A stretch of 62,814 nt of DNA, counting the filler, from Collodictyon triciliatum (lineage: Eukaryota): NCBI GenBank assembly GCA_043381765.1. It is 6 parts of 6 records of this genome, joined end to end, with 100 filler letters (N's around TTAATTAATTAA, not from the genome) between each part and the next. Parts side by side here need not be neighbours in the genome. Positions count along the whole stretch, not along the records: positions 25,907 to 38,715 come from JBHJMP010002096.1; 5 more parts are not named here. One strand, 5' to 3'. Below are positions 12,874 through 60,348 of the stretch, one piece after another. The notes under the pieces were generated by a model that did no database searches, had not been told where the DNA came from, and worked only from the letters and a program-made list of their open reading frames with translations. How positions within the stretch are numbered: position 1 is the stretch's first letter; each line of letters begins with the position of its first letter. Made by a program: the position numbers and the translations under genes.

Positions 12874-12973
12874 NNNNNNNNNNNNNNNNNNNNNNNNNNN
12901 NNNNNNNNNNNNNNNNNTTAATTAATTAANNNNNNNNNNNNNNNNNNNNNNNNNNNNNNNNNNNNNNNNNNNN
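12874..12973. other. Artificial contig-joining linker (N-TTAATTAATTAA-N)
   Basis: A six-frame-stop 12-mer flanked by N runs; the same structure occurs 5 times. Confidence 0.97.
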
Positions 12974-35310: not shown

Positions 35311-35852
35311 ATTCACTCTGACGCGTGGACAGTTTTGTGTCGCTGTGTGCTTTCAGGCGACCGAATAGTGTCGTTTAGTACAGCGCCGCTTTGACTAAAA
35401 GGCACAGGAGAGGATGCGCGGAGTGAGAAGAAGGATAGTTTGCCTTGAGAGAGAAGCGTGTGAATGGATTCGACTTTGATGAAGGGAGAGGAAGAGCGAA
35501 TGGTGTTGATGGAGCTCCACAGAGGATCCACGGCTGTTGGCAGAGCGGTTTATTTTATTTGTTTATTTATATTTTTTTTTTAAAAAAAAAAAAAAGTTGA
35601 ATGAAGCGTAAGATGTCTTGCAGTGGATTGGTGGCTGACAGAGCGGTTGCCAAACGATTAAATGCTTTCGTGGTTCGTGTTTGCGGTTCTTGATTCGATG
35701 ATTTGACTGGACATTGCCAAACCCCACACCAAAAAAAAATAATATTATCTCAACGGTCAGATTCCCGTTGCGCTTTCGAATCACTTATGGATCGATATAT
35801 TTGGAATATATGCCAATTGCTTATTCCTTACTTAATGGACTGATATTGTCTA

Positions 35853-35975
35853 CTAGAAGGGGTATACAATCTTTCGATTGGCAAACCTTGTCCGTTAGCA
35901 TCCAAAGTCTCGCCACTTTTTTCACAAAGATTGAGTAGTGGTGAACACTGCCAGGAAAGACCTAACAGCCTGATT
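35853..35975 (-). ncRNA. Candidate Fanzor omegaRNA scaffold, copy A
   Basis: Non-coding 3' end conserved with copy B. Four predicted stems, including GCTGTTAGG/CCTGGCAGT and CAATC-GAAA-GATTG. No expression evidence. Confidence 0.6.
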
Positions 35976-37849
35976 TTTTAAAGAGAGGTGTGTACATTTT
36001 TTGAAGGATTAAAAGAACTTTCTTGAGTATATTTTTAGCGCTGTTAAGTCCCTTGTCAAGAATACACTTTGCTTTCTGAGCGATTACATTCTTTACATAT
36101 GATACATCTAAACACTTTTTTCGTTTTTCCTTTCAGTTTCATATAATCCAGTTCTTTTTCGCAGTTGCAACACATCTTGGAGGTTCTAAATTACAATAAC
36201 TGCTTCAAAACGTTTGGATAGTATTTTTCGTAATCCCCTTCCGATTGTTGCCATAAAATGGTTGATCGGAGATTTTCTGCTCCAGTCTCCATACGCCAGT
36301 ACAACATCCTTGCCAAATGTCTTCTCGATTCCGTCCATAAACAATTCTTCACTTCTTTTTGTATTAAGATAATGCCTCTATATCATCTTTCGAAAAGTGA
36401 CGTGTTCATAAAATCTGGATAATTCTATCTGGTATCTTGATATCATAGATACACATTTTCGATATTTTTCATAATCAACTGTGCACGAATTATGTTTACT
36501 CAGTCCTGTCTCTAAATCGATTAAAGATATTCTTGATGTCTCAAACCACTGATTCTCTTCAAAAGTCATTTGACCAAAAGAAATAGCACTTTGTAAACCT
36601 GTTGCCATGCATATCCCTGAAGCGTTGTGCTTTTCTTTTTTTTCTCGCGCAAGAGTATTTTGTGTTTTTAAGAGATTTGCTATAGTGTCTTCTTTGGTGT
36701 AGTGTAACGTAATTTCTTACCTGCCTCATCCACCATGTAAACCAAATTAAACTTGCCTGCGTCCACTCCAACTATTATTTTTTTTTTGTCGCTAATAAAG
36801 ATAGTCGCTCTTCGGAAAGTTCATCTATATAAACATAGTCTTGGGTTTTTGATTATTATACTTGATTTTTGAATTTGAAATACCTTTCTTTTCAAACAAT
36901 AATGACACCGCCAAGCCGTCTGTTTGTATCATGTATTAAATATTGTAGTCTGTTTGAATACCCTCCTCTTCATTTCAAAAAACCTATCCCATAGGGTCTC
37001 TTTGCATCCTGATATATTAGTCTTTAATAATGATTTTTTTTCCAGTTGATACCAACATATCTGTCAAACATGCAGTATCTAGACTAATATGACATGGTAT
37101 ATTGGTAGTTCTTATGGGTATTTAGTTGAAACAGTTTGGTTCCAATGTCCTCAAAAATGCGATTCATGTAAATCAGACATGGAATGTACTTATTTGGATT
37201 GACTTTGACATCATGTTCGATACCATTTACAATATCGCTGGGAATGATATGATGCAAATGTATTGCAGCCCATTCTTTATATTGTTCCTTTATTTCGAGA
37301 TTCTTGAAGAAGTCTTTTTTAACTTTCGTAACTCCGCCTTTTTAATAGCTTCCGTAATGTTCTTGTCTTTAGGAACTGTTTGATTTATAAAGCGCAGAAA
37401 CCTCTTTACAAAATGACCCTTAATGTTATTATGATAAGCTGTTAACATTTGCTTCGCCAACTGCGGTAATACACGAGATAGTCCAACGAACGGAAAGCGT
37501 TCTTTCCGGGGCAAAATGAATCGAAAATCATTGATGTAAAAAGTCATCATGTCGTCTCTCATATCTGGATGTTTTAATATTGTGTGTCTATCTTGTGAAA
37601 CTATTCCGACTGTCTTTAAAGTGTACAAAAAAACATTTCATCGATTGTTGGGAGTTGTGATTTCAATATGTAGCATCTTGCAAACAGATAAGTGTCGGTA
37701 ACCAAATTATGACACAATAAAGCCGTATCGTTGATTTCGTCATAGTCATCGGGATTCTTTACAATCGACCTTGGAGATGCTTTCACATTTCGATAGTCTG
37801 GTTTTACAGACTTTACATTCTCAGACTCAAGACGTTTTCTTTTCTTCAT
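35962..37849 (-). pseudogene. Fanzor (TnpB-like RuvC nuclease, Fanzor1-type), frameshifted
   Basis: Fragments: MLTAYHNNIKGHFVKRFLRFIN, IQTDGLAVSLLF, RuvC-I VGVDAGKFNLVY, VVLAYGDWS...TIGRGLRK, FRTSKMCCNC...CKEC zinc finger, RuvC-III TRD..SAKNI. Multiple frameshifts and stops. Confidence 0.88.
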
Positions 37850-38715
37850 GTGAAAGTCTTTGTTTTACTTTTTTTTTCCTTTAGATAACCACCGATTTTT
37901 CAATTTGATAAAACTTTAGTCAAATAGTCAATTTAATATATAAAACAACTGCACAAAATCAATTCAGGTAAAATTAAGCATCTACCGAGACTTTCAAAAT
38001 GTGCGCATTGTGGCAAACAGACACGCAAAGATTTTTTACAAGTGATTTGAGATAAAATGATGAGAGTCGATTTGGCGAGCTCGAAAGGACGGCCATACGG
38101 CCATTTCGACTGAAAGTCAACATATCGGCCCCAAACAACACGATTACCGCCGCAAGTGTGGATAGTATGTTTTTTTGAAATGCATGTTTGGTGGCTGGTT
38201 TATAGGGTGGGTTCTTTCTGGGCCAAAGCAAGGGCTTGTTTGTAGTTTTGAATTTCTATGATATTATTACAAAATGGAAAATAAAATATAAATTGATTAC
38301 AGGAATATAATGAAAGATTATTAAGTATTTTTAACCTTATTATATATACTAATAATACTATTGTATTATTCAGGTTGTTTCTTGGATTCATCAATGCTCC
38401 TGCTTTTTTCAATCCAGATTTAATTCGATGGTTGTCTGTGCAATAAACTGCTATATCCGTGGGTACACTTTCGTTGTATAAAAAGTGGTGTGCTTTGAAA
38501 GGGGTAAACCCTAGTTCGTCACAACCTTTGTAATGAAGTTTATCCATTAACAGGCTGAATGAAATCGAGGAGAAAGGAGAAGGAAAAGGAGAAGGAGAAG
38601 GAGAAGGAGAAGGAGAAGGAAAAGGAAAAGGAAAAGGAAAAGGAAAAGGAAAAGGAAAAGGAAAAGGAAAAGGAAAAGGAAAAGGAAAAGGAAAAGGAAA
38701 AGGAAAAGGAAAAGG

Positions 38716-38815
38716 NNNNNNNNNNNNNNNNNNNNNNNNNNNNNNNNNNNNNNNNNNNNTTAATTAATTAANNNNNNNNNNNNNNNNNNNNNNNNNNNNN
38801 NNNNNNNNNNNNNNN
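38716..38815. other. Artificial contig-joining linker
   Basis: N-TTAATTAATTAA-N. Confidence 0.97.
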
Positions 38816-38987
38816 TTCCTTTCCTTTCCTTTCCTTTCCTTTCCTTTCCTTTCCTTTCCTTTCCTTTCCTTTCCTTTCCTTTCCTTTCCTTTCCTTTCCT
38901 TTTCTCTCCTTTCCTTTTCTCTCCCTCCGCCCTCCTCTACAGGACACACCAGTCACTAGCATACCCACTCACTCACTCACCCCACAG

Positions 38988-39071
38988 AGAATCGCCGAGC
39001 TGGAGGCTGAGAACGCCGCCCTCAAAGCCCGCGTCGCCGAACTGGAGCGCCTTGTCCCCGGCCACCACTAA
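38988..39071 (+). CDS. Terminal exon encoding a coiled coil (gene truncated by contig edge)
   Basis: CAG acceptor, then RIAELEAENAALKARVAELERLVPGHH*, with AATAAA downstream. Confidence 0.6.
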   Translation, partial: RIAELEAENAALKARVAELERLVPGHH

Positions 39072-39435
39072 ACACCTGGTGACGACCCACCCCTCTCCCT
39101 CAGTAATAAACCGGGTGCCTGTCCCTTCGCCGCGTACCTCCCTGCCCGCTCCCACTCACCCAAGGATTTTTTTTAATTAATTTATTTGTTTATCGTATGT
39201 ATATATCGCCCCCTCAAGCAAAGCGCTCTGTCTTTTGTTTCTTGCTTCTTCGCTTTGTTCCTGTGCCGGGGTGTATGTATTGTTGATACAGAAAGTGTTT
39301 GCTGGTTTGCGCAGTGCCCGGGGATTCAGTCTACACGGCCATCCTCTTTTCCTCCCACTCTCGACAGCCCAGTCCTCCCTCCCCAGGTTCCACCGTGCCT
39401 CCCTTTCAAATATATCGTAGCCGAGTCGCCACAGA

Positions 39436-42400
39436 TCAGACCCCCTCGCGCGCGGAGAGTGGGTGCGCAGCCAGGTCGTCGGTGCTGTCCTGCTGCCTGA
39501 CCGGGCTGAGTTCTTTCGCGCTGTGCAGCGGCATCCCATAGGCTGGTCCCAGTGGTCCGACTCTTGCCGGGATGCCTGCTGATGGATACGCCGGCTTCGG
39601 CATGGGAATTACACACCAAACAGGCGCGCAAGCAGAGACAAAAAAAAAAAGAAAAAGAAAAAAAAAAGGTAGGGGTGTGTGGAAGTGGCTGTCAGTTGCT
39701 GTTGGGTGGGTGCCAAACCAGCACAACATGGCAAATAAAGTGGTAGCGGCAATAGTTCGTGTGTGTACAAGGATGAAAACAGTAAAAATTGATGATGGAT
39801 ATGCGGGTGAACTTTAGGGCTACCTTCTTGTTCTTATTCTGCATCTCCGAGCCACGTAGTTCCTTGTTGGCTCCAAGACTCTCCATCGTATCACAGATGG
39901 AGCAGACGTGATGGTTTCTCCGCCAGTGCTGATTGCAAGCTGGGATAAATAGGGGTTGGAAATAGAGGGAAACAACAACAACGAATTAAATCATATTCTG
40001 AATGGCCATCAGTAAAAAAAAACTGTCATAGGTGGGTTCTCATAATAATTGGTTGTCAAGAACCACACCATTTTCTATATGCTAAACCAAAAAAGAATAA
40101 ACTTTCTTTTCTATCATCGTACCGTTGCAGAGATACTCGTCAACACCAAGGTACTTGCACAGGCGCTTCTTCTCTTGTCCACAAACAAAGCAAATTCGAG
40201 GTTGGTCAGGTCTCCGCTGTCCGTGAATGGCACCATTCCTGAATGAGTCACATCCTTCCATGACACTCTCGTCATGCACCCTCTCATTCATCTCAACACC
40301 CGTGTGCCTTCGGTTCATCACCACACGCACAGATGGTGTCATCAAATCAGGTCTCGGTTCTGCATCACCACCATCATTCTCATCATCGACTTCCTTCGGT
40401 GACTGCCCTAGCAGTGTTCCTTCTTCACCCACTTGCACTCTGTCTGATGTCCGTGTGTGCTTCGTCATTACGCTCCCTTTGGGGGACCCTCCCGATTTAT
40501 AATCTGCCTCAGAAAGTGTCCTCAAAACTGAACAAGACTCTTCATTCACAGTAGAGTGCACAACAGATTCACATGCATCCATACTCTCAACTATTGGTTG
40601 CGGTGTTGGGTTCATAGATGATACTACGGTGTTGCTTGCATGGCTCCGTCCACTCTGTTTTTCCAGCCTAGCCAAATCCGGCCTTCCGTAGGTGGATTGA
40701 AGGTTTGGTGCAGACATATTTCGATTGCAATCGTAACCTGCTAAGTTTTCATGTTTGTTATTTCCTCCTCCAGATAAAAAAAACAAACAAAAAACAAAAA
40801 ACAAAAAACAAAAAACAAAAAAACAAAAAAACAAACAAAAAATTAAATGTACCAACAGCTAGTATTTACATCGCTACAAAATATACATTATTTCCCTCCA
40901 TTCCCTTCTCAGTTGTGTGAAATCCATTACCATGATGTCGCTCAACTGTATCCCGGTGTCCATTCAGTCTAGGAGAGAAGCGAGCATATGGTGTTCTCGC
41001 ATGGAAAGCTGGAATCCCTTGCTCATACAATGGCGCATATTCGTTGGGTATGTAATGATTACGCCTTATAGGCTACATTTGATGATGGGTGAACAACAGG
41101 AAACACAATCGAGGATTCTTCTCAATGTACCATAAAATATAAGCTAAACAGTACAGCAGAGCACAATTAAACTGGTAAGATGATTCTATTCCAATATCTT
41201 CCTACCCTAGTGGGGCCTGATATCACCGATGCAGATGTCGCAGAGCTAGGGTGTGAGTGATATTGTATATTGGAGTCCTATGAAGCAGGCCGATATTACT
41301 TTCATTAAATACATGAGCTCAATGGTGGTATATCGAGACATATGATTGGACCTCATACATCAACAAAAATGATTCTTTTCTTTTTCTAGAAAAACTGGTA
41401 ATGATACCGAATCAACGGCAAAATAAAAAAAAATCAAATAGTTGAAAAAAACAAAAACAAAACAACACAAGTTTTCTTTTACCTCAAGATACATATCGTT
41501 GGGGTTGCGAGTGTGCGAATCTTGAAAGTTGCGCCGAGAATACATGGAACGCAAATACTGTTGGTAAAGCTCAGGCTCCAAGGATTGCCCCCGAGAGGTC
41601 GGATGATTACAAACTTTGGAGCATTGATGAATTGTATACATATCATTCGGACATGAAGAGGACGGCTTCATAAATTCTCTGTAGGAATTTTTAGCTCGCA
41701 TAGGGTATTCTTGAAGGGACTCATGAAGCAAATGGTCTGCATGGGCTTTTGGAAGCATGCTTTTGGTTTTCAAGCACCAAGCTAGCAGCATATCCCTGTC
41801 CCAAGTGGTTGGGTCTGACAGAGATATTTGCGGTAGGGTATTGCCGCTTTCGCTGCCAACAGACGACTGATGCACACCTGATGGCCTCATAAAAGACTGA
41901 GAATGTAAATGGGCCAAATGGCCATAGTCCATTCTCTCTGGCAATTGATGACTCAAAGTATATGCTATATCAGTTTGAGACAAAGATTTTGGCATTCGCA
42001 GAGGGCCATAATTGAGTGGATAGCCTTGCACCATATTTGGAGAATATTTTCTTGGTGTTTGCCAATCGTGTTGTTGATGTTGCTGCTCTTCAGGCATATG
42101 TGAAGAAGTTAAATGAGTGTCAGGATGAGCCCTTGGATGGCGATGTGACGGAGGTATGCTAAATGTGTGGGGATGGTGCGTGGAATGAGATTTTGATTTG
42201 AGGGGGGACTCTGCATCTTTCACTGGTTGTTGTATATGTTCTTCTCGGTCGGAACGTAAACACACAGGACAGTGTTGCTGTTGCTCCGCATCCCAATTCT
42301 GACAGACGGCACACTCACTGCTCTTAAAATGCTCTTGCCTTTTCTGCCCTTTAGAGTCCTACCGGGTATGAAAAATCATCATGGATATTGTCCGCCACCA

Positions 42401-43266
42401 TAGACTGGTCGTTGTTGGACTCGATGTCGAGATTTTCCAAAAAGAAATAAATTGGGGTCAACCCATTACAGATAAATATCATTATCATCTGATAATCAAA
42501 ATTCAAAAAGAGAGGAAAAAAAAAGGAGTATACATAGAGTAATAAACAACAAACATTTTTTTGGGTTTCTGAGTAGTTTTCGGACAAAATTCGCCGTATA
42601 TGGGGCGCTATTGTACCATAGTAATCTTAAAACTTCATACACTCTTTTTTTTTTTTTTTAATTATTATTGTTCGATTGCCCATATCGACATCATTCATTT
42701 TTATATTCAACTAGTATAAACAATGCATTTGAAAAAAAGGGGGAAAAAAACATACGAGGGCCGGCCCAGCTGGACTCCGAGGACGAACACGAATCCTCCA
42801 CACCTAATTCACTAGCATTTGTTCGAGCAACCTGTTTGGGCCTGTCAAGTCGAGTCATGACAGTAACACACGTGTCAGGCGTAGTTGAGCGCTGTATTCC
42901 GCCAATATCCGAGGTTTCCTTTGTGCCGGGGTGGGGATCCGATTGACTTGCAAGCACAGGGCGTTTCTCTGCGTCCAGCCTGTGCGCCGATTCAGGCTCG
43001 AGGCAACTCGTAGTGGGGTTGTTCTTTTCAGGAGAGATCAGAGTTGGTTCGCAAGAAGGGCGAATCTGAGAAACAACACCGGACTCCGTCTTTGTCTGGG
43101 GGGACGGCTGCATTTGGCCCAAAGGAGACACAACAGGCTGCGCATAAGAAAGCGGCTTCAGCGGGACAGAGACGGGCTTTGAGCCCTGAATTGTTGCGGC
43201 AAGGACAGACATGAGTGCAGCTGCCGCGTTCGAAGTTGGTCGTGGGTTTGCCGGGTTCGCGTCCAT
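39436..43266 (-). CDS. Large low-complexity protein with a C-terminal GATA-like zinc finger; termini uncertain
   Basis: Long open exons. A phase-1 splice gives CFVC-x17-CNACNQHWRRNHHVCSIC. Confidence 0.55.
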
Positions 43267-44029
43267 CAGGGTCAAACAGCTGTTTTCTGGGGAGTCCGCA
43301 AAGCATAAGGTGTTTGTTAGAGCCACCACAGCAGGGCGGGGTGAGGGAGGGGCGAGAAGTGAGGAGAGGATTCTGAGAGAGGCGCGTTCTGCGGGTCTGT
43401 GATTCATTACCGCCCTCGTTGAAAGGAATATGTGCTGTGGCATTGGTTGGCATTGTGTCCCGTGCTTTCTTTTTCTTTCCTGTTTGTTTCTTTTGTGTCG
43501 GTGGGGTTGGCTCATGTCTGCTTACGTCGTTGAGCGCCGATGACGCAAACCGGCTGTGACGTCATTTCCAATTGTGGAAAATACAGCATGTTCCGACAGC
43601 AGATGGAAAAGCCAGTGTTTTTTTTTTTCTTACATTCCCCCGGCCTTCTGCCAGCTCGCCGCCGTGATGTTACCACGAGCGCGCTGGGCGGTGGCGGAGG
43701 GGGTTGTATGGGTGGAAAATAGCAGGGCACGAAAGGCTTAAAAGCGTGAGCTGTTCAGTTGGCGAGGTTCTCAGTAGAAGCCAAGTGAACCTTGCTTGTG
43801 CGAAAATAAAATAAAATAAAATAAAATAAAATAAAATAAAATAAAATAAAATAAAATAAAATAAAATAAAATAAAATAAAATAAAATAAAATAAAATAAA
43901 ATAAAATAAAATAAAATAAAATAAAATACATGGTTGCATTTTTAAATCAACAAAGCACGTCTCGCTCCAGGTTTAAGGGTAGTACAAACAGAAGCCAAAG
44001 GAAACAAAAACAAATCCATACGGTAGGGC

Positions 44030-45755
44030 ATGCTCGGACAAACAAAACAGTTTATTCCTCTCTGGAAACAAAAAGCTGCGCGGTCTAGAGGGCTTTCTGG
44101 ACTTTCTCAAGCTCTATGGATGAGTGGGTTGTCCAGCAGATTAGGGGGACTGGGCGCTTCTACCACGAAACGCTTGGAAGAATCCCCATTGAGCCTTAGC
44201 CAGGTTTTGAAGAACCCACCCGACTTTCTCAGAGAACACAAAGATACACTAACAAAAGCCATCTCAACAGAGGTTTGTACAAAGAGACTCCTTTATGTTA
44301 TCTATGTTGTTTATCATTGTGATTATTATTGCTGGTTAATTAATCCTGTTTGTGAATGGCCCACATATGCTCCGTCAGAAAAAATGGAGACACAAGTAGA
44401 AGCTAACTGATACACTGCACTGACTCGACACATAGGAATGGATAATTATTGCAGCAGAGGCCTATGGATCAGGTAATTTTTCTGATTCGAGAAACGCTTT
44501 TGAAGAAACAATCACAAAGGAATCAAGTGGAAGCGCTGGGAAAGTTGGGCTTCTATTACTCGAGCTCGAGCACCCGTCGAGTTGCAATCTTATCACTCAC
44601 AAAATGATCCATGAGTCTATTCAAAGGGCAACATCTCAACCTCAATCGATAGAATATAGTACCATAGACCGTGCTATGGATACTTCTTTTAAGAAAAAGA
44701 CACCTACAGGATGCAAAACCGAATTGCAAGGAGCTAAAACAGCACCAGAGAAAACTATCTTGGAGGGGATTCAAGACTCAATTATCAATCTTCCTGAGAA
44801 GCAGCACACACAGGGAGAAAGTATAGTAAAAAAAGCTTTGGATCAGATTGGCACTTACAACCACAAAGACACTCAGGTCGAAGGATTTTTAACAGCCATG
44901 TTGGCCAGAATCATACAAGCTGGGCCCATGCGGGACACAGAAAGTGCACAAGGGTTGAATGCAAGAGCAGCAAACCTCGGAGCACCAGCCGGACTCTTTG
45001 GGGTTGCTGAAGGACTATTCAGAGGGCGGGGAGGCTCTGAAAGAAGCTTACCTGGCGCTTTCAAGATGTTTATGAAAGCAGCAGCGAGTGGACATGCGCA
45101 TGCTTTGGCGCAAACAGGTCACTGTTTTTCCACAGGTACGGGCTGCCCAAAGCCTGATTTGTCCGCTGCTTTGCGTTCGTATCGTGCAGCTGCGTTTCTT
45201 GGGGAGCATGTCGCACAGCTGAACTACGCTTTCTTTCTCGAGCATGGATGGGGTGGCGCTTCTGCAGACACTGAGGCAGCCGCATTTTGGTTTCATGAGG
45301 CTGCATCTTATGGCCTAACTGACGCCCAGCGAAACTATGGCAGGTTGATATTACCTCCATCATTGGTTACATTCGATAGCGACCCGGACCTTTCCCGGGT
45401 ATCGAATGCAGGAGGCCACGATAATGATGCAATCACTGAAGTGGCCTTAGAATGGCTTCATAAGGCTGCTAAGAGAGGCGATGATGATGCACTGGTACAC
45501 ATCGGCTCGATACTCTACACACGCGACCCTGCTTATTCCTTCGAATGCTTCAAAAAAGCTGCTAATCGCAACCATCTTGATGCGGAGTATCTTTACGGAA
45601 AAATTCTGTATTACGGCGCACCTCCTCATGTGAAAGTTGACATAGAACAAGCACTGCGCTGGCTACGTCGTGCAGCTATGCGCTCCCATCCAGGTGCTGC
45701 GTCCCTACTGAGCCAACATCGGGCTTTGACAGGAAATACAAACAATATGCAATAA
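44030..45755 (+). CDS. Sel1-like repeat protein (exons 44030-44272, 44436-45755)
   Basis: Repeats such as AFKMFMKAAASGHAHALAQTGHCFSTG, AAFWFHEAASYGLTDAQRNYG and AEYLYGKILYYG..VKVDIEQALRWLRRAA. Confidence 0.9.
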
Positions 45756-46918
45756 ACTGATTGATATTATTTTCAGTGTTTGTAACAAATAGCTCTACCA
45801 TCCTCATTCTTGTGACACAACAGGCAGGTGCTTAAGTGGTTCTCTTATCCATTTGCCTTGCTTATTGGGATTTTTAAGTTATAGCGAAAGGAATTTTGAC
45901 ANNNNNNNNNNNNNNNNNNNNNNNNNNNNNNNNNNNNNNNNNNNNNNNNNNNNNNNNNNNNNNNNNNNNNNNNNNNNNNNNNNNNNNNNNNNNNNNNNNN
46001 NNNNNNNNNNNNNNNNNNNNNNNNNNNNNNNNNNNNNNNNNNNNNNNNNNNNNNNNNNNNNNNNNNNNNNNNNNNNNNNNNNNNNNNNNNNNNNNNNNNN
46101 NNNNNNNNNNNNNNNNNNNNNNNNNNNNNNNNNNNNNNNNNNNNNNNNNNNNNNNNNNNNNNNNNNNNNNNNNNNNNNNNNNNNNNNNNNNNNNNNNNNN
46201 NNNNNNNNNNNNNNNNNNNNNNNNNNNNNNNNNNNNNNNNNNNNNNNNNNNNNNNNNNNNNNNNNNNNNNNNNNNNNNNNNNNNNNNNNNNNNNNNNNNN
46301 NNNNNNNNNNNNNNNNNNNNNNNNNNNNNNNNNNNNNNNNNNNNNNNNNNNNNNNNNNNNNNNNNNNNNNNNNNNNNNNNNNNNNNNNNNNNNNNNNNNN
46401 NNNNNNNNNNNNNNNNNNNNNNNNNNNNNNNNNNNNNNNNNNNNNAACTCAATATTCTTACAAGGATATTCATCTTCCACAACCCATCTAGCATGATGGT
46501 TTTTTTCTCCCGATTGGATGGTGCTCTTCTGGTAATCATAGTTTGTTCTTTCATCATAAGAAATTAATAGAAAAAAAAGAAAATGTATTGACGAAATATA
46601 CTGTGAATAGTCTTTTATCGTAGTAACCTCACTAATTTGGATCATAGCAATGATTTATTTGTTTATTCATCCATTCTAGAAGGTTGGAATACTATTAAAT
46701 GATAGTATTGAGAGTTACAACGATGCAAAGCTAGCAGCAAACAAAAAAACAAAAACAAAAACAAAAACAAAAACAAAAACAAAAACAAAAACAAAAACAA
46801 AAAGAAAAAGAAGAAAAAGAAAAAGAAAAAGAAAAAGAAAAAGAAAAAGAAAAAGAAAAAGAAAAAGAAAAAGAAAAAGAAAAAGAAAAAGAAAAAGAAA
46901 AAGAAAAAAGTAGTGCCG

Positions 46919-49900
46919 TCAAAGGGTTGGTTGAGGCTGTATTGGCTCAGAATTATCCGCTAATATAATCGTCGCATCGCCGGCTGGGGTTTCGACGACC
47001 ATATCCTTTGGAGCAGATGTATTCTGTAGATTAGGTTTGGTAAATTCATTTGTATTATAAAACACAAAGATGGCGTTGATTAAATTGAGAGATGATGTGG
47101 GTTTCACATGGATATATCAAAAGTGAGTAAAATGTTAATTTCTAATAAAAGTAACGTTACATACTGGGGCGATTATCCTCAAACTTTCCTCTGCATCACA
47201 GACAACTAAAAGCAAATAAAGAGAATTATGACCAACGATTCCTTTAATTAGTTAAGGGGAAAGTGAAATATTGCTCTGCATTTTTTTTTTTATTAAAAAA
47301 ACAATTCATAATCCCTTTTCTATAAATTCAAAATGCACCATCAAAGGCAAAAAACTATTGAATTTAATTTGACTCTAAAAATATTTTGAATCGAACAAAG
47401 GAAAAAAATTGACTCTCGAATTAAAGAATACTGATTTACACATACAAATTATGTAGAAAGACGATAAGGACTCTATTAATTTATTTTTTTTGGAAAACTA
47501 AACAGATGAATGAGTATGAAACCTTTTTGTAGTTGGCCACTGATATGCGAAAACGCGGAAGAGCATTTTGGGCACCTTAGAAGAGTCTGGTTGTTGGCAT
47601 GACAGGAAATAATTGTACCACATTCCAAACATTCTACATGTGTTTGAGACTTTTTGCATAATTCACATGTGATTGGTATTCCAGACACGTATTTGACCAT
47701 TGTACACGATTCACATCCGGTACAAACATAAACGATGTTAATTTGATCGCAATTTGGGCACGTATGTAAGGGTGCATCATTCAAAGTGATTTGAACAGGT
47801 TGAAGACACCCTGAGCATATCGAGAGAAGATGTTGTGTTTTGCAAGTGCAGCATTCTATTTTGCCTTGGCAGGCTGGAGAGATTACGGTGTAATCGGAAC
47901 ATTTTGTGCAAGCGACATATGCACATGACTGGAGACACAAGAAGCAGAGAAATGTCTTCTTTGGTGTAGAAACAGGGACGATATTGGTTTGAAAGCACTC
48001 TTTGCATTTTCCAAAGTAATTCACTTTGTGACACCTGCGACAAACGCAACTCCAGCTCCCTTCCTCCAGTATCAATATTTCGGTGCGACAATGTAAACAG
48101 GTATGGTTCAATTGAACTTGCCTGCAGGTTTCGCAGACATTATCAGCCATTTCCTTGCCTGCGCGATATTTTCAGGTCAAATGGTGTGGTTAGGTCACGC
48201 TGTCATGATATTTTGGCTCTGTTCCGACAGGATATTCACCCACTCAGATTAATTTCAGAATTTAAAATAAGAATAGGGAATGAAAATATGAATTTAAAAT
48301 ACGAATTAAATAAAGAAACACGAAGACTTGATTGCAGACCGTACCTTCAAACATATCGTTGCAAATCGCACATGTTTTCAGCTGCTCCTAAAAGAAAATC
48401 TTAAGTATAGCGATTTAACCTTTTTGAATTAAATAAAGAAAAAAAAAGGGCACTCTTTCATTTTGAAGACTAGGAAAAAGGGGCACCTTTTTAAAGGAAC
48501 ATCTGACACAAATGAAATAATAAGAAAATATGCAACCTCTGATGGAGTGACATCGAAAACGTTTCGAGGGTAAAATGGTGGTGGACGAGCAGAAGGTTTT
48601 CCAATCATGGCAGTTTGCGCAAGGGATAGTACACCAGGCGATTCATCTCGATAATTACCTTGGAATGGTTCTACATTTGAATCCACAGCGCTCGTATATG
48701 AGAGCCTGGAAGGTAATTGCTTCTGCCTTTTTGATGTGGAGGAGTCGGAATACACATGAAAAGTGATGCTTGAGCTCTGCTCAATTACTTGTGAGTTTCG
48801 AACAGTTGCCATCTGATGTGACTTCCGAGATAGTTTTTTGGTTGCAAACTCGGTTTCCTCTGACTTGTTTCGTTTCCTTTGTGTGCCACATAGCAATGAG
48901 GTATTGCTTCTGTAGAAAACTCCTTTAGACAAGCCTTTCGATTGGAAAGCGTGAATATCATTTCTATACATAACAAGTAGTTCTTTGGTTTCTGGGTGGG
49001 GATTCATATCCATAATTGACTGCATGAGATTGAGAAAGCGTTCATAATCTGCAGGTGAGCAATAAATAGAAAAGGGATTCATGAGTCCAAATATAATTTT
49101 GTCTATGTTCTCTTTGATGCGGGTATGAGCTGGAACATCCCATTCTGCACAGCTATCGAATACATCAAGAGCAAACATAGACTGCAGTTGTCTGAAATGC
49201 GATTTAAAAATATTTGGATTGAAAATATCTGTTTTTGAACCTATAGTCAAATAATTACTTAGGAAGGATATTACAAATATGTGCAAATATGTTCATATAA
49301 AAAGAAAGAAATTTTTTTATTTCTAATGTATTGCATAATTATATTGCATTAAAAATTAACCTGTGAGAACTCTATCTTTTATATCTTCGAAAAGTTGGGC
49401 TGAAGATTTCGATTTCAAAGATATGGCTGTATTTACAAAACTTGTGCAGGACAAATTCTGTTGGAATATATTCGAATCTATTGGGAATAAATTCAAAAGT
49501 GTAGAGCGAACCAAAAATTGAAGCTCTCCTTTTGTCATTCGAGAAAATAAGTCATTCTCTGATGCTCGAGGGCACTTATCCTGATCAACTTCCGGTGAGT
49601 CGTCTCGAGAATAGATAGTGATAATCGGAAGTCCACACAAGAAAGGGTATAAAAGCACAGATTCGTGCGTGTTTTCCATAGCAAATCGATAGAGGTTGGT
49701 TGAAGGGTTCAAAATTAAGCAGAGCTTTTCTTCAAAAGCCGGTGTCCAATTTGTATCGTACACAATAGCATTTATCGTAGGAAGAGTCACATAGATTGGA
49801 GCATCGATAGAGCTTACCAAGACGATTTCACCTTTCCTTGGACTTTCCATTAGCTCGATACGATTCTGTATCTGAAGATAATCACTAGCGGCATCCAAAA

Positions 49901-51486
49901 CCACAACTTGGCGATTAGAGACTGCGATTTGTGATGCAATAATGGGGAGTAGTTTATCATCAGATGTAAAAATTACTGTTGCCAGCTGGTTTGAATCCAA
50001 ACTTTCAAGCAAAGATATTAAGACGGTAATTTTGGAGCACATATTTCCAGAGGATAGTGGCTTCATCCATTCAATAGATAACAGTTCACGATGTAAAAGT
50101 TCTACGTTTTGTAACAAAAACGGATGATTCACAACTTTTTGAGTTAGTCGGATGAATCGAATCAGAAGTTCTCGTGAAGGTTCATTCTGACAAAAATTTG
50201 AAGCGCATGAGAAATATATGGAGCGCATTAATGCTTTCTGAAAATTTGTTAAAGGGACTAGTATCAAATATTCGTTTTCTAAACTCATGACTACCGTTCG
50301 GTTGGATAAAAAGCGTGATACAGTATCAGGCCTAATAAGTGACTCTAAAATGTCTTGATGATGTGAGGTGTGAACAGAGGAAAGCCGATTTCTTAAAGAA
50401 ACATGATTTTGAGGTGTATCGCAGTTAAGGAAGGAATACTGTTTCCATAAATCCACATAAGAAAATTTCTCTTGTAAGGGAAATGTGAGAAGGCGAACTC
50501 TCGAGTCGAGCCTGGACATATTTCTCAAAAAATCAGACCCTTCTTCATCTTCACTAATTCCATTCATGCCAACAAGAACTAGAACCAACCATGTTAGTTG
50601 GCTAAGATGATTGTAGTCCCGCACAAATATTTCATAGGTGGTGAGCAGAATATTGAATTTAGGTCGCATAGTTTGTTGTGGTAGCTCCATAATCAAATCG
50701 TTAGCCCGAATAAACGAGCGTTCGGTCTCTGGCCCAACATACTCAACAGCGTACCATTCTGGAATCCTGTGAACTAGTGCAGACCATTGAGCTATAGTTG
50801 AGGGAGAATCTGACGGGCATATAATTATTGAAGGGAGGTCTGAATAGGATGCCTTTGATGCTTGGTGAATAAAGGTGACCAACTAATATATTGTATTCGC
50901 ATTTTACAGTTTAGATTTGATACATGTTTTTTAAATATAAATACGGATACGGTATGCATAGTTATGTCGCTAATTTCGGTATTACAGAAAAAGCCAGCCT
51001 TAACTTATAAACTTTTATACTCACTGTTTCTTCGGGATGCAAATTTTTGTCATCGAAATATATCGTGGGCCTGAATTGATTTAAAGACTCGTATAATTTG
51101 ACATGAGCTGCCAGCTGATATATGTTCAGGCTTGAACTAGATGGGTGTATCGATTCACAGAAAAGGTTTTGATTTGGATGCAAGCGTTGTCTCTGACTTG
51201 GGTCTAAGTTGGGGTACTTTCTCCTTATGAATGCTTCCAACTAGAGGAATGGTCGAAGGGTAAAAAATCAATATATAAATTCTTTAAATATAATTCTTTA
51301 TACTGGAAAAAAATGAAAGTCTTATAAAAAAAGCCAAAAAAATGAAGACGACCTTAGTCTTCTCTTGTGATATCCAAATATCATGTTCCCACGATGATTC
51401 GATATAAGGGAGACTATTCCACTTCACAAGGTAAATATTTCGAAATGTCTGTGGACATCGCTTACATTGAAGTATTCTATCGACCT
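46919..51486 (-). CDS. CHD-like chromodomain + degenerate SNF2 ATPase + tandem CxxC zinc fingers, 5'-partial
   Basis: Chromodomain VDRIL..YLVKWNSLPYIESSWE. SNF2 motifs KFNILLTTYEI, LVPLTNFQK, LTQKVVNHPFL and SKITVLISLL. In-frame phase-1 splice MFEG/KEMADNVCETC leads into the Cys-rich exon. Confidence 0.75.
47377..47408 (+). mobile_element. 32-bp poly(A)-tailed retro-insertion in an intron of the CHD-like gene
   Basis: ...TTTTGAATCGAACAAAGGAAAAAAA lies between TTGACTCT repeats (47369-47376, 47409-47416). Confidence 0.55.
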
Positions 51487-51615
51487 AGTAATGAATAAAA
51501 CTGATAAATACAATAAAATACCAAAAATACCAAAAATACCAAAAATACCAAAAATACCAAAAATACCAAAAATACCAAAAATACCAAAAATACCAAAAAT
51601 ACCAAAAATACCAAA

Positions 51616-51715
51616 NNNNNNNNNNNNNNNNNNNNNNNNNNNNNNNNNNNNNNNNNNNNTTAATTAATTAANNNNNNNNNNNNNNNNNNNNNNNNNNNNN
51701 NNNNNNNNNNNNNNN
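51616..51715. other. Artificial contig-joining linker
   Basis: N-TTAATTAATTAA-N. Confidence 0.97.
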
Positions 51716-52369: not shown

Positions 52370-52490
52370 CTGGAAGGGTTTACAATCTTTTGATTGGTAA
52401 ACTTGGTCCACTAGTATCCAAGGTCTCACCACTTTTTTCAAAAAGAACGTGTAGTGGTGAAGGCTGCCAGGAAGGACCTGACAGCCTATT
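52370..52490 (-). ncRNA. Candidate Fanzor omegaRNA scaffold, copy B
   Basis: Stems at 52461-52487 (11 bp), 52426-52433/52453-52460 (8 bp), 52402-52422 (5 bp) and 52378-52402 (10 bp plus a bulge). Confidence 0.62.
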
Positions 52491-54527
52491 TTTAAAAGAG
52501 AGGTGTATGCTTTTTTTTGAAGGATTAAAATAACTTTCATGAATTTTTAGCGCTGTTGAAGCCCCTTGTCAAGAATACACACTTTGTTTGCTTTCTGAGC
52601 GATTGCATTCTTTAAATACGAGGCATCTATACAACTTTTTTTTTGATTTTCCTTTCGGTTTCATACATTCCAGTTCTTTTTCGCAGTTGCAGCACATCTT
52701 GATGTTCAAAATTCATCTACACTAACTGTTTCAAAACGTTTGGATAGTATTTTCGTAATCCTCTTCCAATTGTTGGCATAAAATGTCTCATCGGAGATTT
52801 TCTACTCCAGTCTCCATACGCCAGTACAACATTCTTGCCGAATGTCTTTTCGATTCGTTCCATAAACAATCCTTCACTTCTTTTTGTATTAACATACTGC
52901 CTCCATACCATCTTTCGAAAAGTCATCATGTCCATAAAATCTGGATAATTCTATCTGGTATCCTGATTCCATAGATACATACTCTCAAAATTGTTCATAA
53001 TCAACCGTGCATGAATTACGTTTACTCAATTCTGTCTCTAAATCGATTAAAGATACTTTTAATATCTTGAACTGCTGATTCTCTTCAAAAGTCTTGTGAC
53101 CAAAAGAAACAGCACTTTGTAAACCTGTTGCTATGCATATTCCTGAATCATTGTACTTTTTCTTCCTGCGCAAGTGTATTTTGTGTTTTTTAAGAGATTT
53201 GCTATCATGTCTTCTTTGGTGTGCCGTGTAACGTAATTTCTTACCTGTCTCATCCGCTATGTATACCAAATTAAACTTGCCTGCATCCACTCAAACTAAT
53301 TTTTTGTCGGTAATAAAGATAACTGTTCTTCGGAAGGTTCATCTATATGAACATATTTTGATTTTTTTTGTTTATATTTGGATTTTGAATTTGAAATACC
53401 TTTCTTTTCAAACAATAATGACACCGCCTAGCCGTCTGTTTGTATCATGTATTTAAAATTGTAGTCTCTTTGATGAAAGACCCTCTTCTTCATTTCAAAG
53501 AACTCATCCCATAGGGTCTCTTTGCATCCTGATGTATTCTTCAGTAATTTTTTTTCAGTTAATACTTATATATATCAAACATGCAGTATCTATGGTAATA
53601 TGATATGGTATATTGTTAGTTCTTACAGAGATTGGTTGAAGCAGTTTGGCTCCAATGTCCTCAAAATGCGATTCATGTAAATCAGACATGGAATGGACTT
53701 ATTTGGATTGACTTTGACGTCATATTCGATACCATTTACAATATCGCTGGTAATGATATGATGCAAATGTATTTTAGCCCATTCTTTTTATTGTTCTGGT
53801 ATGTCGATTTTCCTGAAGATTTTTTTTTTAACTTTTGTAACTCTGCCTTTTTAACAGCTTCCGTAATATTCTCATCTTTAGGAACTCGCTATCACTGATT
53901 TCTTTCCAGTGCTAGCCTCTCCAGGGTAGTGTCTTCTCCTACTCGCGTTTGCTCTCTCCCATGCGCTCTCATCCCGCCCCTTTGTATGGCATTACCTCGC
54001 TACACTTTGAACCGAATAAAGGAAAAAAATTCTCATCTTTAGGAACTGTTTGATTTATAAAGCGCAGTAACCTCTATACAAAATGTTCCATATGGTTATT
54101 ATGATAAGCTGCTAACATTTGCTTCGCCGAGTACGGTAATACATGAGACAGTCCAGCCAACAGAAACCGTTCTTCTCAGGACAAAATGAATCGAAAATGA
54201 TTGAGATAAAAAGTCATCATTTCTTCTCTCATATTTGGATGTTTTAAAAATGTGGGTCTATCTTGCGTAACTACTCCGACTGTCTTGAAAGCGTACAAAA
54301 AAAAAAAAACGTGTCATCGATTGTTGGGAGTTGTTGTGATTTCAATATGTAACATCTTGCAAACAGATAAGTGTCGGTGACCAAATTATGACACAATAAA
54401 ACCGTATCGTTGATTTTATCATAGTCATCCAGATTCTTTACAATCGACTTTTGAGATGATTTCACATTTCGATGGTCTGGTTTTACAGACTTTAGATTCT
54501 CAGACTCGACGTTTTCTTTTCTTCATC
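52490..54527 (-). pseudogene. Fanzor (TnpB-like RuvC nuclease), frameshifted and interrupted by a retro-insertion; 3' end approximate
   Basis: VDAGKFNLVYIADETGKKLRYT, VVLAYGDWSRKSPMRHFMPTIGRGLRK, VSVDEF, MCCNC, TRGFNSAKN. Confidence 0.88.
53887..54029 (+). mobile_element. 143-bp poly(A)-tailed retro-insertion (truncated non-LTR/SINE-like 3' end) with 18-bp TSD
   Basis: Absent from copy A. Flanked by TTCTCATCTTTAGGAACT (53869-53886, 54030-54047) and ends TTTGAACCGAATAAAGGAAAAAAA. Confidence 0.88.
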
Positions 54528-55232
54528 TGAAAGTCTTTGATTTTCTTTTTCCTTTAGAAAACTACCGAGTCTTCAATTTTTATAAAACTTTAGTCAATCA
54601 GTCATAGTCCATTTAATAAAAAAAAAAAAAAACTGCACAAAATCAATTTAGGTCAAATTAAACATCTACCGAGATTTCCAAAATGTGCGTATTGTGGCAA
54701 ACAAACACAAAGTTTTTTTTATAAGTGATTTGAGACGAAACGTTGAGAGCCGACTCGACGAGTTCGAAAGGACGGCCGTATAGCCATTGTGGCTGAAAGT
54801 CAACATACCGGTACCAAACAACATGATTGCTGCCGCAAGTGTGGATAGTATGCTTTTTTTGAAATGCGTGTTTGGTGACAGGTTTACAGGGTGGGTTCTG
54901 TCTCGACCAACGCAAGGGCTTATTTGTAATTTTTGAGTTTTATCGATTTTTTTTTATTCTTCCTGTCAATTTTGCGCAGAATGGCGGAGGTTTCATATAT
55001 TCGGTTTCATTTCAGTTTATTTGACATGTGGGGTGGCGGAGATTTTTGGTGTGCCACTGGTAACTTCACAAAATATTGGTTTCGTGGTAAAATGTGCTGA
55101 TTAAATACGGGTATTCTTTTTTGGAGAAGGGGAACAAGAAAACATGCCTCCTGATGAATACGCCGAATGTACACCACGTGATGCAATTAAAATGAAATAT
55201 ATACTATAAACCCAAATAATTAAACACATCCA

Positions 55233-55488: not shown

Positions 55489-55588
55489 NNNNNNNNNNNN
55501 NNNNNNNNNNNNNNNNNNNNNNNNNNNNNNNNTTAATTAATTAANNNNNNNNNNNNNNNNNNNNNNNNNNNNNNNNNNNNNNNNNNNN
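55489..55588. other. Artificial contig-joining linker
   Basis: N-TTAATTAATTAA-N. Confidence 0.97.
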
Positions 55589-55735: not shown

Positions 55736-59661
<3,926 letters not shown>

Positions 59662-60348
59662 TGCGCAGGGGCTGTGTTGTTTGGGCAAAACACTATTTTT
59701 TTTTATATATATTTATTTTTGTCTATATGATTAAAAGGGGAAGAAGCAACAAGCAAGTGGGTTTGTCTAGTGTGGCTGAAGCGTTTGTGAGTATTTGGTT
59801 CTACTCTCTCGAGTTATTATCGATAAGAATACTCAAGTCTCTTGCTCAGGGTTGAGAAAAGTTTATTGCGATCGTTCTTTTGTACTTCTGTTCTCTTTTC
59901 CATTATTTTGTGACTATTTTTTTTGGATTCATTTGTGTGGATTGATTCTCCGGAATGGCGTGGGAATATCCTCGTGGAAAAGGAGAGAGTAAGGGAAAGG
60001 AGCGGATTATATCCGCTTTGCCGATTATTTTCGAGATACTTCCAGAATAATCAGTAGTTCAAAAATTTATAGTGACGAAACATACCCACATGCGTATTAT
60101 TTATTGTCAACAAATATAGATTTGGAAAATATTCTTGTGCCTTTTTTTTTGTTCGGATCAATCTGCCAACGATCCAATCCGCTACAGCGAACCTAGAACC
60201 CAACCCAGAAATCGCAGCCGAATCGCTGCACAACAGTGGCTTTCGGCCAGGCCTCTTCATGTAAAGATGCAAAGTTGCAGTTAAGACTCAAGATTCTATG
60301 AGCTGTTTATATTCCAGCAGCAAAGAACAAGAACCGCAGCCGAATTAA

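Follow-up and report, generated by a model that had tools for sequence, protein, structure and literature searches.

The window analysed here, a stretch of 62,814 nt from Collodictyon triciliatum (assembly GCA_043381765.1), holds two copies, A and B, of a repeated element that carries the remains of a Fanzor1 gene and has Helitron-like 3' ends. Artificial N44-TTAATTAATTAA-N44 linkers at window positions 12874-12973, 25807-25906, 38716-38815, 51616-51715, and 55489-55588 join separate contigs; copy A is on contig C2096 and the next piece (38816-51615) is contig C2097, so the closeness of A and B in the window is an effect of concatenation and not a biological adjacency. Pairwise alignment of A with B gave 88.1% identity over 2433 aligned bases. 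All features of the element given below lie on the minus strand.

Copy A occupies 35853-38715 and was 83 to 86% identical to other copies from 38713 to about 35851, with a sharp 3' end, while its 5' arm is interrupted by the contig end at 38715, directly after which the linker begins. The Fanzor1 pseudogene within it (35920-37849, ATG at 37849) aligned at 61% identity with residues 1 to 642 of P0003, an intact metagenomic protein of 648 aa that is the nearest homolog, with two stops and 14 frameshift calls. Copy B (52370-54946) is without the 5' arm and ends in CCAG (52373-52370) followed by T; its pseudogene (52437-54526, the end coordinate being approximate, ATG at 54526) was 59% identical to P0003 and showed 11 stops and 11 frameshift calls. 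A preliminary description of this DNA had called five catalytic codons (Asp, Asp, Asp, Asp-Glu, and Gly), and each proved correct when re-read on the minus strand. In copy A, the RuvC-I Asp (GAC, 36761-36763) stands in a D-A-G context and the RuvC-III Asp (GAC, 36048-36050) is followed by a codon with a 1-nt deletion; the deletion of about 5 nt that had been placed near 36190 was confirmed by pairwise alignment as a gap between 36193 and 36192, where copy A lacks the Asp of RuvC-II together with part of the Glu codon. In copy B, the RuvC-I Asp (GAT, 53285-53287, also D-A-G) has a TGA two codons upstream, the RuvC-II Asp-Glu (GATGAA, 52712-52717), of which the Glu is catalytic, has a TGA two codons downstream, Gly replaces Asp at the RuvC-III position (GGC, 52561-52563), and the second zinc-finger Cys is changed to Phe. 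The catalytic residues kept by A and B thus sit in broken frames.

The identity of the gene was established through P0003. This protein was matched at 59% identity by P0001, a 311-aa stop-free stretch of another copy, and itself matched three Fanzor1 structures (PDB 9cer, 9cf0, and 8gkh) with E values of 2e-28, 3e-24, and 4e-23. The catalytic positions of A and B correspond to D364, E555, and D604 of P0003 and are not chance motifs, because they map to the triad of a protein that matches Fanzor1 structures. Copies of the family were 56 to 66% identical to P0003 over long spans. Their modal residues include E555, then F-R-T-S-K-M, then C562, which places the Glu six residues before the zinc finger; this rearranged RuvC-II Glu is described as a Fanzor1 trait by Yoon et al. 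(PMC10711439). Among homologs of at least 540 aa (n = 265), the residue before the RuvC-II Glu was Asn in 146 and Asp in 101, so that of the "DE" pair taken as catalytic in the preliminary description the Glu stands and the preceding residue does not. There is no shortage of intact Fanzor1 relatives (243 proteins at E 1e-10). Against Pfam, fragments of the window matched only weakly, to Cas12f1-like_TNB at E 0.04 to 0.06, and longer proteins reached E 1e-4 to 0.04. A segment of about 30 to 40 residues (aa 405-445) occurs in the family and in P0003, where it is in frame, and is absent from P0004-P0007. In the same source, D-P-G is described as near exclusive to Fanzors and part of their fingerprint (PMC10711439). 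Since neither the D-P-G fingerprint nor an open frame was found, we file the gene, as judged from its sequence, as a Fanzor1-derived pseudogene family and not as a typical Fanzor1 member.

Decay of the gene copies

A first look at the genome gave 352 candidates for the RuvC region, 229 for the 5' arm, and 325 for the 3' end, figures that are not copy numbers. Retrieved loci matching the gene numbered 134 and represented at least 100 distinct copies; these were the best-scoring matches, and the sample leans to well-kept copies. Each copy was aligned to P0003 with frameshifts permitted, and the resulting frameshift counts are slightly high, in that a few calls may come from tracts of low complexity whose length differs between P0003 and the family.

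The RuvC-I Asp was present in 79 of the 88 copies covering it, the RuvC-II Glu in 66 of 93, and the RuvC-III Asp in 80 of 93, in agreement with the earlier view that the ancestor held all three acidic residues. At the RuvC-III position (aa 604), four of 93 copies have Asn; GtFz1, which bears Asn there, is active (PMC11423790), so losing this Asp does not in every case abolish activity. The full D-E-D triad, incomplete in both A and B, was found in 48 of 88 copies, yet all 46 copies that span the gene carry 8 to 23 stops or frameshift calls, and no intact copy was found among these 46 or among 68 scored protein matches. The preliminary description had seen special evidence in the complementary lesions of A and B, from which an intact triad could be put together. 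This part of it is not supported: with 48 of 88 copies complete and nevertheless dead, the triad is not the missing part, and the complementarity holds no special information.

The proposal that the copies decayed independently is borne out. No stop is common to A and B, and the two frameshift calls that they share both fall in homopolymer tracts (aa 75-78 and 178). The tree of 88 copies is star-like, with an external length of 7.30 and an internal length of 0.73; the mean pairwise distance is 0.140, A and B are 0.150 apart, and B ranks 81st of 87 in closeness to A. The ratio of nonsynonymous to synonymous rates (omega, with rates from fourfold sites) was 1.06, and 0.94 for variants above 15% frequency. 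At no position was a stop or frameshift the most frequent state, and five recurrent stops (aa 362, 462, 507, 491, and 396) were not supported as clade markers (p 0.17-0.70). The decay is star-like, neutral, and private to each copy.

It could be argued that the lesions are homopolymer errors of the assembly and that intact genes exist at these loci, as the frameshift calls that recur most often are located in poly-A or poly-T tracts. We consider this exceedingly improbable, for each copy also differs from the modal codons by 7 to 13% substitutions, nonsense codons occur (11 in B), some deletions lie outside homopolymers, and a short repeat with its own duplication has been inserted. The contigs of four sequencing runs, each sampled as a small share, gave many pieces 80 to 95% alike over the element and were uninformative on the lesions of copy A.

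Helitron-type ends, candidate RepHel partner, and probable capture junction

Homology among the copies breaks off abruptly at 35853 in A and at 52370 in B, in each case after a hairpin and a CTAG-type end. The 3' terminus of copy A (35853-35880) consists of a hairpin at 35880-35867 and CTAG at 35856-35853, with T following. Among 93 distinct 3' ends, 53 have CTAG, three CTAA, and three CTGG, with the hairpin present in the aligned ends, as expected of a CTRR terminus; the next base is T in 73 of 93, and positions +9 to +12 are A-rich. In the terminal hairpin, the loop is found in either orientation (GAAA-type in 60, TTTC-type in 11, and other in 22 of the 93 ends; L115, L117, and L126 are examples), which is what inversion of the loop in a hairpin of DNA would produce. 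Full-length copies measure about 3.4 to 3.7 kb (14 examined, two with internal deletions and one with an insertion) and begin in a (TTTG)n tract; TT(T)GCA followed by (TTTG)n forms a candidate start in 10 of 35 arms, preceded by A in eight of the 10.

A RepHel gene that could serve such an element is present in the genome. Contig C6377 contains STPR, Helitron_like_N, and PIF1 domains above the Pfam cut-offs, and its RepHel matched Helraiser (7LCC) at E 3.5e-42; locus L111 (C6377:627-4208) holds a RepHel frame of 1194 codons without a stop and is our best candidate for the autonomous partner. The N-terminus of the C6377 RepHel matched the arms of three Fanzor-bearing copies (L046, L084, and L103) on the same strand with E values of 3e-9 to 3e-6. 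At the DNA level, 14 of 16 tested loci matched RepHel loci over 90 nt, and a subterminal motif and pyrimidine tract were 70 to 80% identical; in copy A, the pyrimidine-rich tract common to the RepHel Helitron subterminal region was recognized by sequence match at 38565-38715.

The genome also holds Fanzor-less sister elements, which share the 5' arm and terminate in a different hairpin with a CTAG-type motif. We found 24 sister ends and none with a reversed control pattern; T is next in 23 of the 24, four of which share one flank and are not independent, and positions +9 to +12 are again A-rich. This common target bias, which extends beyond the A and T that border the insertion (A-T sites), points to one transposase for both forms; empty A-T sites were seen directly for the sister element only. 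Fanzor-bearing and sister forms diverge at one point, after CATTC (38557/38556 in copy A), where 37 Fanzor-type and 11 sister-type junction reads were counted in the fetched loci. From this junction to the Fanzor ATG, about 700 bp are conserved across the family and contain frame-like stretches (38203-38547 and 37936-38255). The region had no Pfam, Atlas, or relative match, and the upstream frame at 38203-38547 was likewise without Pfam or Atlas support.

Five sister ends adjoin Fanzor-element sequence at two recurrent sites, which in other copies are A-T. The chimeras, each a short sister Helitron joined to the 3' part of a Fanzor element, are L175 (C2700), L176 (C4619), L179 (C535), L190 (C7635), and L039 (C566), and they are likely read-through products. 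Sister ends at A-T sites fit an insertion at A-T followed by comobilization by read-through, as in Helraiser, for which capture by read-through has been demonstrated (PMC4778049).

We consider it highly probable that A and B are dead copies of a Fanzor1-bearing nonautonomous Helitron about 3.6 kb long, and that this family came about in the following steps. The 5' part of about 0.9 kb is a deletion derivative of the RepHel Helitrons of this genome, and a Fanzor1 cassette of about 2.7 kb, with its own hairpin and CTAG end, takes the place of the sisters' terminator at the single junction. RepHel supplied in trans would have copied the element by rolling circle into A-T sites, in one burst and to a few hundred copies; each copy then decayed neutrally and on its own. 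The gene may have come from a Fanzor1 element with terminal inverted repeats (TIRs) on either side, a kind common in giant viruses, and may have been acquired through recombination or when the terminator was read through; what follows the gene would have been the omegaRNA scaffold, with the right flank as the guide.

Several observations weigh against this account. Of the 3' ends, 40 of 93 are not CTAG; a 5'-TC start was not found, and no more than 10 of 35 arms show the TT(T)GCA candidate start. On C6377 the RepHel frame includes 848 N and is truncated where the contig ends. The Fanzor element's last 30 nt, its terminator sequence, are unlike those of the sisters, and none of 10 tested Rep or PIF1 loci held a RepHel copy ending in the Fanzor-type 30 nt. 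In comparisons with TIR-flanked relatives, the sequence that follows the gene scored above all 200 shuffles in only one of four, and the DNA context of P0003 was not obtained, a search of metagenome and viral contigs having found nothing and the phage collection having given no match. In the gene itself, stops were observed at 0.72 of expectation, against 1.03 for synonymous changes, a slight deficit, and the unweighted ratio of nonsynonymous to synonymous polymorphism (pN/pS) was 0.75 overall and, by rising frequency class, 0.99 (singletons), 0.82, 0.61 (the 5-15% class), and 0.94; the stop deficit and low pN/pS leave room for some selection or for a sample biased toward the best-scoring copies. 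Finally, the flanks of copy B share a 9-nt match, AAATCGATA, a length that cross pairs of flanks from different copies reach or exceed in two of 600. We file the element in the Helitron superfamily as HLE1-like and not as strict HLE1 (Helitron-like element 1), since the 5'-TC start fails and since proto-Helentrons are described with 5'-TT and 3'-CTAG ends (PMC11417382).

Two families of short A-tailed repeats are inserted in the element; one of them shows a duplication of 19 bp and a signal resembling AATAAA. A 142-bp repeat lies antisense in copy B at 53887-54028 between the two parts of a 19-bp duplication (54047-54029 and 53886-53868), with matches of 83 to 96% at 10 other loci among those listed, and the A-tailed end of a second repeat (54947-54992) adjoins copy B. 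We take these repeats to be SINE-like (short interspersed nuclear elements), a label given from anatomy.

The 9-nt match at both ends of B could speak for an unclassified Fanzor transposon with target-site duplications (TSDs) on either side, or for a Mariner-type element; relatives of the gene are TIR-flanked, and the missing 5'-TC would fit such an origin too. The upstream half of the match, however, consists of the short-repeat A-tail and element-internal sequence, and L096 and L035 have the identical tail at this place in the element. Sequence upstream of 38268 in copy A is still element, up to the contig end. In the 14 full-length copies no excess of TSDs was found (own flank pairs matched over 3 to 7 nt, cross pairs over 2 to 9 nt), and 25 apparently truncated copies, several of which have variant arms or other repeats upstream so that true host junctions number fewer than 25, resembled cross pairs with the exception of B. 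TIR scores were 14 to 22 in the 14 full-length copies against 56 to 62 in seven of 12 relatives, and no inverted match of the last 32 nt was found. Together with the RepHel-derived arm and the sister ends, these results largely refute a TSD-flanked or Mariner-type transposon, which we regard as very improbable.

Other candidates were rejected as well. A Mariner-type TIR Fanzor element does not agree with the low TIR scores of the 14 full-length copies; the label "Mariner-type" is given from anatomy. An endogenous giant virus or provirus was set aside, as flanks differ between copies and the surroundings are gene-poor (open reading frame cover 0.12-0.45 at eight loci), no dedicated viral-marker scan having been part of this comparison. 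Helitron2 or HLE2 of the CRe-1 type was rejected on the lack of asymmetric inverted repeats, the CTAG end, and the lack of TSD excess. A Replitron (PMC10288648) was considered and dropped after the RepHel homology appeared.

Source and competence of the nuclease

The preliminary description had called the ancestor catalytically competent and proposed a multicopy consensus as the check. The consensus bears out the triad, which is modal and can be assigned to the source, but competence does not follow from it, because A and B, like the family as a whole, are altered at positions that hardly vary among homologs, a result that partly goes against the description by the refuting test it had set itself. 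Next to the RuvC-I Asp, 80 of 88 copies have Ala and not one has Pro, the residue that follows it in 262 of 265 homologs; the natural homolog P0267 also has D-A-G. In 80 of 88 copies, too, Asp replaces Glu391, a residue with 95% conservation among homologs. Of 22 columns with this degree of conservation, the family departs from two, a number that 8% of homologs equal; of 84 columns with 80% conservation it departs from six, a number that 47% equal. With 432 of 630 modal residues identical to P0003, the source was close to an intact protein but had two uncommon changes, which the copies share. In neither of two poly-A tracts does one frame hold a clear majority (27 of 88 and 31 of 72 copies are in frame), so the copies alone do not show an open source frame there. 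On the modal sequence, the source copy had the D-E-D triad and probably an open frame; because the conserved Pro after the RuvC-I Asp was lost, we give roughly an even chance that this copy could still cut DNA when it was amplified.

Two accounts of the burst hinge on this point. The source may have encoded a fully active nuclease that aided the burst by cutting vacated sites to restore the element, with activity lost later, copy by copy. The modal triad, zinc-finger cysteines, and YGDWS, the lack of any modal stop or frameshift, the unexceptional number of deviations at the 80%-conserved columns, the absence of the Pro from three of 265 long homologs as well, and the mild stop deficit all agree with this account, to which we give somewhat less than an even chance. 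Against it stand the Ala for Pro and the Asp for Glu391, the two deviations at the 95%-conserved columns, and the values of omega, also for variants above 15% frequency; in addition, upstream of the candidate 5' starts only a single A is conserved, with no sign of a target shaped like a target-adjacent motif, and the 68 protein matches and 46 full-span copies included no intact one. Alternatively, the gene was already crippled at amplification and traveled as a passenger, the family-wide changes being decay from before the burst. The family-wide loss of the D-P-G fingerprint and Glu391, neutrality at all frequency classes after spectrum weighting, and the ambiguous frame at the two tracts are in line with this, as is the report that nonautonomous Helitrons do not need a cargo gene in cis (PMC4778049). 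Any such decay must have been short, given the 432 modal residues shared with P0003 and the lack of a modal stop, and the recurrent stops mark no clades; a passenger gene, too, seems to us not quite an even bet.

Where the gene came from is suggested by its relatives. The P0003 clade is represented on giant-virus contigs by 357 confirmed of 549 candidate relatives in IMG/VR, the best being 44 to 47% identical to P0003, and the closest homologs with known context are mostly on such contigs. Inverted repeats of about 30 bp flank seven of 12 relatives, and two of the other five had less than 800 nt upstream. A tblastx search with the first 1.7 kb of the element gave no match upstream of the gene at 160 relative loci. 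We infer that the gene moved from a TIR element into a Helitron.

The region after the gene is a candidate omegaRNA scaffold (35853-35971 in copy A), a suggestion made from its position, at which Fanzor1 omegaRNAs are reported to sit (PMC10432273, PMC13565253). The last 120 nt are predicted to form three stems and the terminal hairpin, with a z score of -1.99 for one copy, and one of 24 predicted scaffold pairs showed a two-sided change; there was no Rfam match at 35700-36200. A further-reaching scenario would combine these elements: in a switch of vehicle from a giant-virus TIR transposon to a host CTAG-type Helitron, the terminator hairpin would have been adopted as the 3' end of the guide-RNA scaffold, and an active D-A-G variant would have cut vacated donor sites and powered the burst, which reached hundreds of copies and outpaced the amplification of the Fanzor-less sisters. 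We think this unlikely.

Elsewhere in the window, inspection by eye pointed to a metacaspase-like frame (21884-23968), a Sel1-repeat-like frame (44436-45755), and a ubiquitin-specific protease-like gene with introns (57342-59712), all of which we take to be host genes of a microbial eukaryote.

Comparison with known systems

The complementary lesions of A and B are ordinary transposon decay, and little is gained from the pair while intact relatives are plentiful. Of more use is that the genome still has the RepHel parent, the Fanzor-less sisters, and one capture junction, which permits a direct comparison of Helitrons with and without Fanzor cargo and bears on what Fanzors do for single-strand transposons, a question raised in PMC10432273 and PMC13565253.

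At the protein level, the family resembles GtFz1, PpFz1, and SpuFz1 (Xu et al. 2024, PMC11423790) in whole-length homology through P0003 and in the D, the Glu six residues before the zinc finger, and the RD; it differs in the D-A-G and in that all examined copies are broken, and it resides in a Helitron, whereas Spu-1 lies between inverted repeats. The TIR Fanzor1 elements of giant viruses (L247, L198, and L200) belong to the same protein clade, at 44 to 47% identity to P0003, and show a weak likeness in the region after the gene; they differ in having TIRs of about 30 bp, intact genes, and an open reading frame cover of 0.81 to 0.96, against 0.12 to 0.45 around the Collodictyon element, and gave no DNA match to its arms.

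At the level of the element, the 3' hairpin with CTAG, the T after the end, the lack of TSDs, and the STPR-bearing RepHel are shared with Helraiser and HLE1 (PMC4778049, PMC11417382), as are, for the sister element, the A-T sites; STPR has been reported almost only in HLE1 (PMC11417382). Unlike canonical HLE1, the family has no 5'-TC, has a TT(T)GCA plus (TTTG)n candidate start, and carries a Fanzor1 cargo.

Helitrons are listed among Fanzor carriers, without details of their ends, in PMC10530073 and PMC13565253; a CTAG-type Helitron with a Fanzor was not found in the available passages of the Fanzor and Helitron literature, and the Repbase entries that these two papers cite may hold one. Fanzor1 in Helitrons of the Helitron2 type is already published: CRe-1, -2, and -3 of Chlamydomonas reinhardtii are nonautonomous, Fanzor1-bearing members of Helitron2 (Bao and Jurka 2013, PMC3627910). 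The Collodictyon family is like them in being nonautonomous, in carrying a Fanzor1 gene in many copies, in the over-representation of intact 3' ends, and in a 5' arm shared with RepHel elements. The CRe elements alone have asymmetric inverted repeats, insertion after TTTT, TSDs of 7 to 19 bp on truncated copies, and expressed, intron-bearing genes, whereas the Collodictyon family has a hairpin and a CTAG end followed by T, no TSD excess, and a pseudogene in every copy seen. What the present family adds to these systems is modest, namely the anatomy of the capture and the CTAG-type ends.

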